Shown in pieces: positions 37,453-38,697 of a stretch of 64,000 nucleotides of DNA (positions are counted from its first letter, which is position 1; the number at the start of each line of letters is the position of its first letter). Position numbers and translations under genes: made by a program. Source of the DNA: Shigella phage CT01; the sequence record OK018184; one strand, given 5' to 3'. The notes beneath the pieces are model-generated. The model was not told the origin of the DNA. It did no database searches and saw only the letters and a program-made list of their open reading frames with translations.

Positions 37453-37539
37453 TGGTGGGGAGTGGTGGAGTCGAACCACCCGAGTCGCAATGACAATGGA
37501 TTTACAGTCCACACCGCTACCTCTACGGGATAACTCCCC
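37453..37539 (-). tRNA. tRNA-Tyr (anticodon GTA), class II
   Basis: Acceptor GGGGAGT/ACTCCCC, anticodon loop CTGTAAA, long variable arm, T-loop TTCGACT, encoded CCA. Confidence 0.8.
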
Positions 37540-37548
37540 AAATTAATT

Positions 37549-37623
37549 TGGTGGCCCTGGGTGGAATTGAACCACCATCTGGCGATTATGAGTCGCTTGC
37601 TTGAACCTTCCAGCTACAGGGCC
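37549..37623 (-). tRNA. tRNA with CAT anticodon (Ile if lysidine-modified, otherwise Met)
   Basis: Acceptor GGCCCTG/CAGGGCC, anticodon loop CTCATAA, encoded CCA; at the position of T4 tRNA-Ile. Confidence 0.75.
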
Positions 37624-37624
37624 T

Positions 37625-37700
37625 TGGTGCTGATTGACGGAATCGAACCGCCGACCTTCTCATTACAAGTGAGTTGCTCTACCTACTGAGCTAAATCAGC
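37625..37700 (-). tRNA. tRNA-Thr (anticodon TGT)
   Basis: Acceptor GCTGATT/AATCAGC, anticodon loop CTTGTAA, T-loop TTCGATT, encoded CCA. Confidence 0.85.
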
Positions 37701-37705
37701 AAAAC

Positions 37706-37795
37706 TGGCGGAGGCGATAGGATTTGAACCTATGAGTCGCCGGAGCGACTGCCGGTTTTCAAGACCGGTGCATTAAACCACTCTGCCACGCCTCC
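37706..37795 (-). tRNA. tRNA-Ser (anticodon TGA), class II
   Basis: Acceptor GGAGGCG/CGCCTCC, anticodon loop CTTGAAA, long variable arm, encoded CCA. Confidence 0.85.
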
Positions 37796-37797
37796 AG

Positions 37798-37871
37798 TCT
37801 CCATACAAGGATTTGAACCTTGGACCTCCTGATCCCAAATCAGGCGCTCTACCAAACTGAGCTACACGGAG
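37798..37871 (-). tRNA. tRNA-Pro (anticodon TGG), CCA not encoded
   Basis: Acceptor CTCCGTG/TATGGAG, anticodon loop TTTGGGA, T-loop TTCAAAT; abuts tRNA-Ser with a 2-nt spacer. Confidence 0.8.
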
Positions 37872-37881
37872 TAAATTAAAT

Positions 37882-37955
37882 TGGAGCGGATAATGAGAAT
37901 CGAACTCACATCATCAGATTGGAAGTCTGAGGTAATGCCATTATACGATATCCGC
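37882..37955 (-). tRNA. tRNA-Gly (anticodon TCC)
   Basis: Acceptor GCGGATA/TATCCGC, anticodon loop CTTCCAA, T-loop TTCGATT, encoded CCA. Confidence 0.85.
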
Positions 37956-37960
37956 AAATT

Positions 37961-38047
37961 TGGTGCGAGAAGTGGGACTCGAACCCACAAGGAAATCATT
38001 CCGCAGCATTTTAAGTGCTGTGCCTTTACCAATTTGACCATTCTCGC
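37961..38047 (-). tRNA. tRNA-Leu (anticodon TAA), class II
   Basis: Acceptor GCGAGAA/TTCTCGC, anticodon loop CTTAAAA, long variable arm, encoded CCA. Confidence 0.85.
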
Positions 38048-38048
38048 G

Positions 38049-38115
38049 CTGGGAATAAAGGACTCGAACCTTTGCATCCTGGAATCAAAATCCAGTGCCT
38101 TACCAATAACTCCCC
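38049..38115 (-). pseudogene. chimeric tRNA remnant: 3' 58 nt of tRNA-Gln joined to the first 10 nt of tRNA-Tyr
   Basis: Identical to the intact tRNA-Gln at 38625-38697 over its 3' part, but the 5' acceptor and D-arm are replaced by GGGGAGTTAT at the duplication junction. Confidence 0.7.
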
Positions 38116-38124
38116 AAATTAATT

Positions 38125-38199
38125 TGGTGGCCCTGGGTGGAATTGAACCACCATCTGGCGATTATGAGTCGCTTGCTTGAACCTTCCAGCTACAGGGCC
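38125..38199 (-). tRNA. tRNA with CAT anticodon, duplicate copy
   Basis: Identical to 37549-37623, shifted by 576 bp. Confidence 0.75.
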
Positions 38200-38200
38200 T

Positions 38201-38276
38201 TGGTGCTGATTGACGGAATCGAACCGCCGACCTTCTCATTACAAGTGAGTTGCTCTACCTACTGAGCTAAATCAGC
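38201..38276 (-). tRNA. tRNA-Thr (TGT), duplicate copy
   Basis: Identical to 37625-37700, shifted by 576 bp. Confidence 0.85.
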
Positions 38277-38281
38277 AAAAC

Positions 38282-38371
38282 TGGCGGAGGCGATAGGATT
38301 TGAACCTATGAGTCGCCGGAGCGACTGCCGGTTTTCAAGACCGGTGCATTAAACCACTCTGCCACGCCTCC
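38282..38371 (-). tRNA. tRNA-Ser (TGA), duplicate copy
   Basis: Identical to 37706-37795, shifted by 576 bp. Confidence 0.85.
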
Positions 38372-38373
38372 AG

Positions 38374-38447
38374 TCTCCATACAAGGATTTGAACCTTGGA
38401 CCTCCTGATCCCAAATCAGGCGCTCTACCAAACTGAGCTACACGGAG
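38374..38447 (-). tRNA. tRNA-Pro (TGG), duplicate copy
   Basis: Identical to 37798-37871, shifted by 576 bp. Confidence 0.8.
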
Positions 38448-38457
38448 TAAATTAAAT

Positions 38458-38531
38458 TGGAGCGGATAATGAGAATCGAACTCACATCATCAGATTGGAA
38501 GTCTGAGGTAATGCCATTATACGATATCCGC
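38458..38531 (-). tRNA. tRNA-Gly (TCC), duplicate copy
   Basis: Identical to 37882-37955, shifted by 576 bp. Confidence 0.85.
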
Positions 38532-38536
38532 AAATT

Positions 38537-38623
38537 TGGTGCGAGAAGTGGGACTCGAACCCACAAGGAAATCATTCCGCAGCATTTTAAGTGCTGTGCC
38601 TTTACCAATTTGACCATTCTCGC
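38537..38623 (-). tRNA. tRNA-Leu (TAA), duplicate copy
   Basis: Identical to 37961-38047, shifted by 576 bp. Confidence 0.85.
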
Positions 38624-38624
38624 G

Positions 38625-38697
38625 CTGGGAATAAAGGACTCGAACCTTTGCATCCTGGAATCAAAATCCAGTGCCTTACCAACTTGGCTAATTCCCA
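38625..38697 (-). tRNA. tRNA-Gln (anticodon TTG), intact copy, CCA not encoded
   Basis: Acceptor TGGGAAT/ATTCCCA, anticodon loop TTTTGAT, T-loop TTCGAGT; abuts tRNA-Leu with a 1-nt spacer. Confidence 0.8.

Follow-up and report, generated by a model that had tools for sequence, protein, structure and literature searches.

In the T2-type phages T2L, RB1, vB_EcoM_Nami and EcNP1 the transfer RNA (tRNA) genes form a single-copy cluster, annotated in Nami as ten genes in the order Gln-Leu-Gly-Pro-Ser-Thr-Met-Tyr-Asn-Arg. T2L carries the same ten-gene set, and the tRNA region of RB1 is of similar length (PMC2330249). Comparable duplications are known from T4, in which amplifications of dmd-tifA (under toxIN selection), rII and genes 16-18 form through microhomology as head-to-tail contiguous repeats, often in more than two copies and with the selected gene inside the unit; they potentially raise gene dosage and are limited by headful packaging, and in the verified cases, which include duplications in CRISPR escape, the junctions lie at 2-10 base pairs (bp), typically 6-10 bp, of microhomology (PMC9391042). 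Here, we examine a stretch of 64,000 nucleotides (nt) of Shigella phage CT01 (record OK018184; the whole stretch is called the window below), in whose tRNA cluster a segment of 576 nt stands twice in direct succession. The window holds two further duplications, and all three are present in the sequence with zero divergence, are private to it and lack homology at their junctions. We consider it somewhat more probable that the 576-bp repeat is a product of the way the sequence was built than that it belongs to the phage genome in particles.

The window is a T2-type Tequatrovirus (T4-like phage), its nearest deposited genomes being EcNP1 and Nami (~97-98% identical across the flanks). It resembles the four single-copy phages named above in the genes of the cluster, their order and strand, the flanking genes and the lack of segB, at an identity of 97-100%, and its cluster is located between a Y07B-like open reading frame (ORF) and an ORF of 116 amino acids (aa). 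Unlike these relatives, it has the segment from tRNA-Gln position 17 to tRNA-Tyr position 10 twice, which results in 16 tRNA genes and a hybrid element, an arrangement found in no other record.

Direct string comparison established that 37530-38105 and 38106-38681 are identical at all 576 nt, as had been claimed in the first-pass annotation. The two units are head-to-tail copies of one contiguous segment (period 576, 2.0 copies), and the run of matches at this period extends over 577 nt (37530-38106 = 38106-38682), one base at the junction being common to both. A perfect match of 576 nt is impossible by chance. Tandem Repeats Finder did not report the repeat because its maximum period is 500, and the direct comparison was used in its place. 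All 16 tRNA genes called by ARAGORN in the window lie on the minus strand. Met(CAT), Thr, Ser, Pro, Gly and Leu are present twice, in agreement with the six doubled genes of the earlier reading, while Tyr, Asn, Arg and the complete Gln are present once. In minus-strand orientation, the junction consists of the 10 nt that open tRNA-Tyr, GGGGAGTTAT (38115-38106), followed directly by the 3' part of tRNA-Gln (38105-38048). The latter had been taken as 58 nt of tRNA-Gln; the hybrid itself stands, with the refinement that these are 57 nt of tRNA-Gln and a 1-nt C spacer ahead of tRNA-Leu. The T at the join can be assigned to either parent. The features of the locus are as follows:

37453-37539, minus strand: intact tRNA-Tyr(GTA) (ARAGORN).
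37530-38105, minus strand: duplication unit copy 1, promoter-distal, with the tRNA-Gln 3' part, Leu, Gly, Pro, Ser, Thr, Met, a spacer and the first 10 nt of the intact tRNA-Tyr (identity to 38106-38681 and tRNA calls).
38048-38116, minus strand: tRNA-like hybrid of the 5' 10 nt of Tyr and the 3' part of Gln, without a D arm (Rfam RF00005 and fold).
38105-38106, no strand: novel junction with 1 nt shared (A on the plus strand) (match run of 577 at period 576).
38106-38681, minus strand: duplication unit copy 2, promoter-proximal, with the 3' part of the intact tRNA-Gln, Leu, Gly, Pro, Ser, Thr, Met, a spacer and an orphan 10-nt 5' fragment of tRNA-Tyr (identity and tRNA calls).
38624-38697, minus strand: intact tRNA-Gln(TTG), which opens the cluster (ARAGORN, Rfam).
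37374-37448, minus strand: tRNA-Asn, single copy (ARAGORN).
37294-37369, minus strand: tRNA-Arg, single copy (ARAGORN).

The comparison with related T-even genomes that had been suggested earlier was carried out, and the duplication was present in none of them. Probes of 40 or 24 nt across 38105/38106 were employed. The junction-centred 40-mer matched none of 50,697 phage records and nothing in the E. coli genome set, and the exact patterns of the tRNA junction were not found in IMG/VR, the JGI metagenomes or the GTDB genomes. As a positive control, a 40-mer from within the unit matched 458 records, exactly once in each. With one whole unit as the query, 686 records were matched at 688 places, and the top matches among 848 related phage records were ~1025 bp each, corresponding to one copy. 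Among the relatives is a metagenome contig (ERZ19289331 NODE_892, hereafter L009), which is 100.0% identical to the window over 36295-38106 and shows its first mismatch at 40998. Its two alignments to the window overlap on 577 nt of L009, so that it holds a single copy; when the repeat is collapsed, the window is collinear with and 100% identical to L009 and agrees with the Nami annotation. Given that L009 is identical over 36295-40997 and has one copy, the duplication is younger than any substitution in ~4.7 kb. An ancient or conserved arrangement of 16 tRNA genes is ruled out by the zero divergence of the units and the single copy in all relatives.

A repeat scan of the window revealed two more perfect two-copy tandem duplications, which the first-pass annotation had missed:

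11003-11355, minus strand: second duplication, 176 nt twice (11003-11178 and 11180-11355), with a filler A at 11179, period 177.
20015-20306, minus strand: third duplication, 146 nt twice (20015-20160 and 20161-20306), with zero junction homology, period 146.

The second unit takes in the final 38 nt of pin, crosses the intergenic region and extends to codon 30 of gene 49 (endonuclease VII), and its duplication yields an in-frame chimeric ORF of 42 aa (11140-11268) that joins gp49(1-30) to the pin C-terminal part. The third covers the 3' end of a small ORF together with codons 1-43 of a DUF4031 gene, and yields a chimeric ORF of 49 aa (20140-20289). Exact look-ups of these two chimeric ORFs and of two ordinary proteins returned no entry for any of the four. 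Neither the 176-nt nor the 146-nt unit contains a complete gene, as opposed to six tRNA genes in the 576-nt unit. The junctions at 11179/11180 and 20160/20161 are absent from every collection searched, while positive controls were recovered. Contig Logan SRR12802600_1194 (L003) is identical to the window over 9171-15559 except for the duplication, which it has in single copy, and a 2-nt indel; likewise, Logan SRR26926504_792 (L022) is identical over 18416-24114 except for the duplication, again in single copy. When collapsed, the 11003-11355 region matches phage sutha, itself single-copy, in one piece, and the 20015-20306 region is single-copy in the related loci L018-L022 and in Nami. The identical flanks of L003, L009 and L022, each with one copy, indicate that every one of the three events is younger than any point substitution in these flanks. 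Moreover, a scan of 347.5 kb of homologous loci (22 related genomes and contigs) gave no perfect tandem duplication of at least 60 nt, compared with three in the 64 kb of the window.

Two side observations concern the same flanks. The 2-nt difference from L003 lies at 12546-12547, where a C-run of the window includes a CC missing from L003; the window encodes there a DUF7205-type ORF of 71 aa (12391-12606) and L003 one of 61 aa, and it is probably L003, not the window, that carries the error or frameshift. In addition, 9171-15559, 18416-24114 and 36295-40997 are, duplications aside, 100% identical to Logan SRR12802600, Logan SRR26926504 and ENA ERZ19289331, respectively, while the neighbouring stretches are at 93-99%. 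This pattern is a recombination mosaic, on a fine scale, of T-even sequences in circulation. At the duplication junctions themselves, boundaries of such a mosaic or of recombination are ruled out, since the nearest relative is 100% identical on both sides of each.

With the ancestral flanks read from L003, L009 and L022, junction homology amounts to 1 nt at 38105/38106, 0 nt at 20160/20161 and -1 nt, i.e., one filler base, at 11179. Such values are those expected of random joining. Microhomology of 2-10 bp flanking the unit, as in the T4 duplications, was found at none of the three. With the T4 amplifications the window shares the head-to-tail contiguous arrangement in a T-even genome, the limit set by headful packaging and a potential gain in gene dosage. 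It differs from them in that it has junctions of 1, 0 and -1 nt where T4 has microhomology, exactly two copies where T4 often has more, and no complete gene in two of its three units where T4 has the selected gene inside the unit.

The reading that we favour to a limited degree is based on these observations, namely three perfect two-copy duplications (576, 176+1 and 146 nt) in 64 kb against none in 347.5 kb, junctions that are all private even though contigs with identical flanks hold one copy, and the lack of the 2-10 bp of microhomology seen in the verified T4 cases. Furthermore, the two smaller units, having no complete gene, offer no dosage benefit that would keep them. An origin in silico or at the bench, instead of in the phage, is what we infer from this pattern. 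Overlapping pieces (contigs, amplicons or finishing reads) would have been joined end to end without trimming of their overlaps or, alternatively, an assembler would have passed twice through a spurious cycle. Every such join would leave two perfect tandem copies at an arbitrary site, and three of them, at 11179/11180, 20160/20161 and 38105/38106, would be needed; a wrong terminal base at the end of one piece could account for the filler A at 11179. The true genome would then carry an ordinary single T2-type cluster of ten tRNA genes behind one upstream promoter, and no hybrid tRNA. The window presents exactly two copies in each case, zero divergence, arbitrary endpoints free of homology, absence from all relatives, including those with identical flanks, and several joins in one record. 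Duplicated regions and over-coverage assembly errors are recognized faults of phage genome submissions (PMC8785237). The duplications described there, with contigs extended beyond 100% and untrimmed overlaps, resemble those of the window in perfect identity, two copies, arbitrary endpoints and absence from relatives (PMC8785237). The classic assembly duplication, however, is one overlap at the contig ends or the circularization point, whereas the window has three internal joins with different overlap lengths, for which a build from multiple pieces would be needed.

Several points weigh against an origin in assembly or finishing. A single circularization overlap of a permuted genome was rejected as the sole cause, since it explains one duplication and not three. 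De Bruijn assemblers usually collapse tandem repeats and seldom create them. The rest of the window looks like a consensus of high quality, in which kilobases agree exactly with other assemblies and the 71-aa ORF is intact where L003 has its 2-nt deletion, and so clean a consensus fits poorly with sloppy assembly. In addition, none of the three duplications (0/3) lies wholly inside one gene, and no gene is left without an intact copy. If the duplications were placed at random, the combined probability that none of them falls within a single coding sequence would be ~0.11 (0.35 x 0.40 x 0.76), which weakly hints at a viability filter and hence at real events, and is too weak to decide the matter.

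The same placement, together with the high sequence quality elsewhere, would suit a genuine and very recent origin of the tandem duplications in the phage stock that was sequenced, by homology-independent (illegitimate) joining, with the extra copies carried as neutral passengers. We regard such an origin as possible, although unlikely. Two sister genome copies would have been broken at different points and joined, e.g., through subunit exchange of topoisomerase II or end joining by ligase in the pool of replicating DNA, and the products would have been fixed by a plaque-purification bottleneck, both tRNA sets being co-transcribed from a single upstream promoter. The filler base is also a classic mark of real end joining, headful packaging would tolerate ~0.9 kb of extra DNA compared with ~3.3 kb of terminal redundancy, and T4 is known to form tandem amplifications readily (PMC9391042). 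On the other hand, one lineage would need to have fixed three rare and independent events before one substitution had occurred in kilobases of flank, the duplication is seen in none of ~460-850 related genomes and no such event in 347 kb of related loci, and the junctions do not have the 2-10 bp microhomology of every verified T4 case cited. Finally, T4 recombination is very active and would be expected to remove perfect repeats fast; two of the units, with no conceivable benefit, should have been lost by homologous recombination.

Expression would not stand in the way of a genuine duplication, as the presumed promoter lies outside the unit. The element in question is the following:

38785-38791, minus strand: MotA-box-like TGCTTTA, with TATTAT 12 nt downstream (pattern search; candidate middle promoter).

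It is located upstream of tRNA-Gln and outside the duplicated segment, and by analogy with T4, in which a middle promoter lies just upstream of the tRNA cluster (PMC2330249), it is a candidate for the middle promoter of the tRNA transcription unit. Given its position outside the repeat, a real duplication would have its two tRNA sets transcribed together.

The arrangement also brings to mind selection for tRNA dosage. The tRNA duplication would then be real and selected on the isolation host for higher dosage of Leu(UAA), Gly(UCC), Pro(UGG), Ser(UGA), Thr(UGU) and the CAU-anticodon tRNA, a reading that we hold to be very unlikely. The unit does contain six complete tRNA genes inside a transcription unit, and dosage-driven amplification has been documented in T4 for tifA (PMC9391042). 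Selected duplication of tRNA genes is likewise documented in Pseudomonas fluorescens SBW25, where tRNA gene copy number was raised by tandem duplication, as in the window (PMC7661048; PMC10954465). Those cases, however, are large chromosomal duplications with fitness restoration shown experimentally (PMC7661048; PMC10954465), whereas for the window no phenotype or recurrence is known. Two copies occur in no other Tequatrovirus among 458-686 records, the junction is devoid of microhomology, and there are two copies only. Moreover, dosage selection leaves the two gene-less duplications of the same window unexplained. The three options offered by the first-pass annotation (very recent, under selection or an artefact) were thus the right set, with the second of them weakened by these two private, gene-less duplications.

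Two further conceivable origins are unequal homologous crossing-over between similar tRNA genes and faulty repair after cleavage by a SegB-type homing endonuclease that a co-infecting phage supplied; taken together, these origins appear highly improbable. The 5' ends of tRNA-Tyr, GGGGAGTTA, and tRNA-Gln, TGGGAATTA, do match at 7/9 positions and share GGGA-TTA in their 5' acceptor strands. The join, however, is out of register, connecting Tyr position 10 to Gln position 17 with 1 nt shared, where a common stretch of at least 6 nt was to be expected, and unequal crossing-over was rejected on this ground. As for SegB, the tRNA-Gln and tRNA-Tyr genes of T2L are among its targets, but its recognition sequence is GGTTCRANTCC and cleavage takes place close to the 3' end of tRNA genes (PMC2330249), away from the D-arm region that holds the endpoints. 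A SegB-induced break was rejected given these published cut positions and the two duplications that are not in tRNA genes, which neither route explains. It may be added that a GIY-YIG (SegB-like) homing endonuclease ORF is found within the tRNA cluster of some relatives (9240-9905 in L015 and 8886-9593 in L017) and that the window and L009 have no such ORF in the cluster, which marks the cluster as a known T-even hotspot of insertion and exclusion.

Concerning the hybrid element, it scores 32.6 bits on Rfam RF00005 (38049-38116; gathering score 29), compared with 67.4 bits for the intact tRNA-Gln, and ARAGORN does not call it as a tRNA. Its minimum free energy (MFE) fold has an acceptor stem of 6 bp, and both the anticodon arm and the T arm are intact in it. 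That the 5' end can pair with the acceptor 3' strand of tRNA-Gln, as anticipated before, is borne out in silico by this stem, which includes one G-U pair and compares with 7 bp in the canonical form; there is a G1-A72 mismatch, and an alternative register starts from U38116. Neither the MFE fold nor the Rfam alignment contains a D helix, the 5' strand of the D stem (GCC) having been deleted. Minihelices of acceptor and T arm are substrates of RNase P and the CCA-adding enzyme. Processing of the hybrid into a tRNA is for this reason conceivable, and would be moot if the duplication is an artefact. Rfam also gave matches to 'Plastid-ycf2 5UTR', sX4 and YrlA over tRNA genes or their antisense (37551-37623 and 37627-37700 and their copies, plus strand); all fall under the gathering scores and look like cross-matches to the tRNA shape.

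Elsewhere in the window, a family of direct repeats of 62-78 nt, 60-73% alike, was observed at 7526-7587, 18388-18465, 19836-19897, 20462-20523, 35804-35881, 39686-39763 and 40059-40120. On the minus strand these contain boxes of the type GTTTACA...TATACTAT and resemble the T4 early-promoter consensus upstream of minus-strand genes.

Should the duplications be artefacts, they matter for data hygiene only. The record would over-count tRNA genes (16 for 10), and three spurious chimeric elements could spread into tRNA censuses and protein databases. If they are real, the kind of event is an ordinary one, tandem segmental duplication, with an unusual homology-free junction, and in neither case is it a new genetic system. 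In its fullest form, the biological interpretation is that the three duplications represent a burst of genuine homology-independent tandem duplication in a wild T-even phage, through a topoisomerase- or ligase-mediated pathway unlike the microhomology route of T4, with six tRNAs doubled and a co-transcribed D-armless hybrid that may be processed by RNase P and the CCA-adding enzyme; we consider this combination doubtful. A real duplication would nevertheless be a structural mutation of a T-even phage caught ahead of any decay, its junctions pointing to homology-independent joining, and it would provide a natural test of the benefit of doubled phage tRNA dosage and of the processing of a D-armless hybrid tRNA in E. 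coli.

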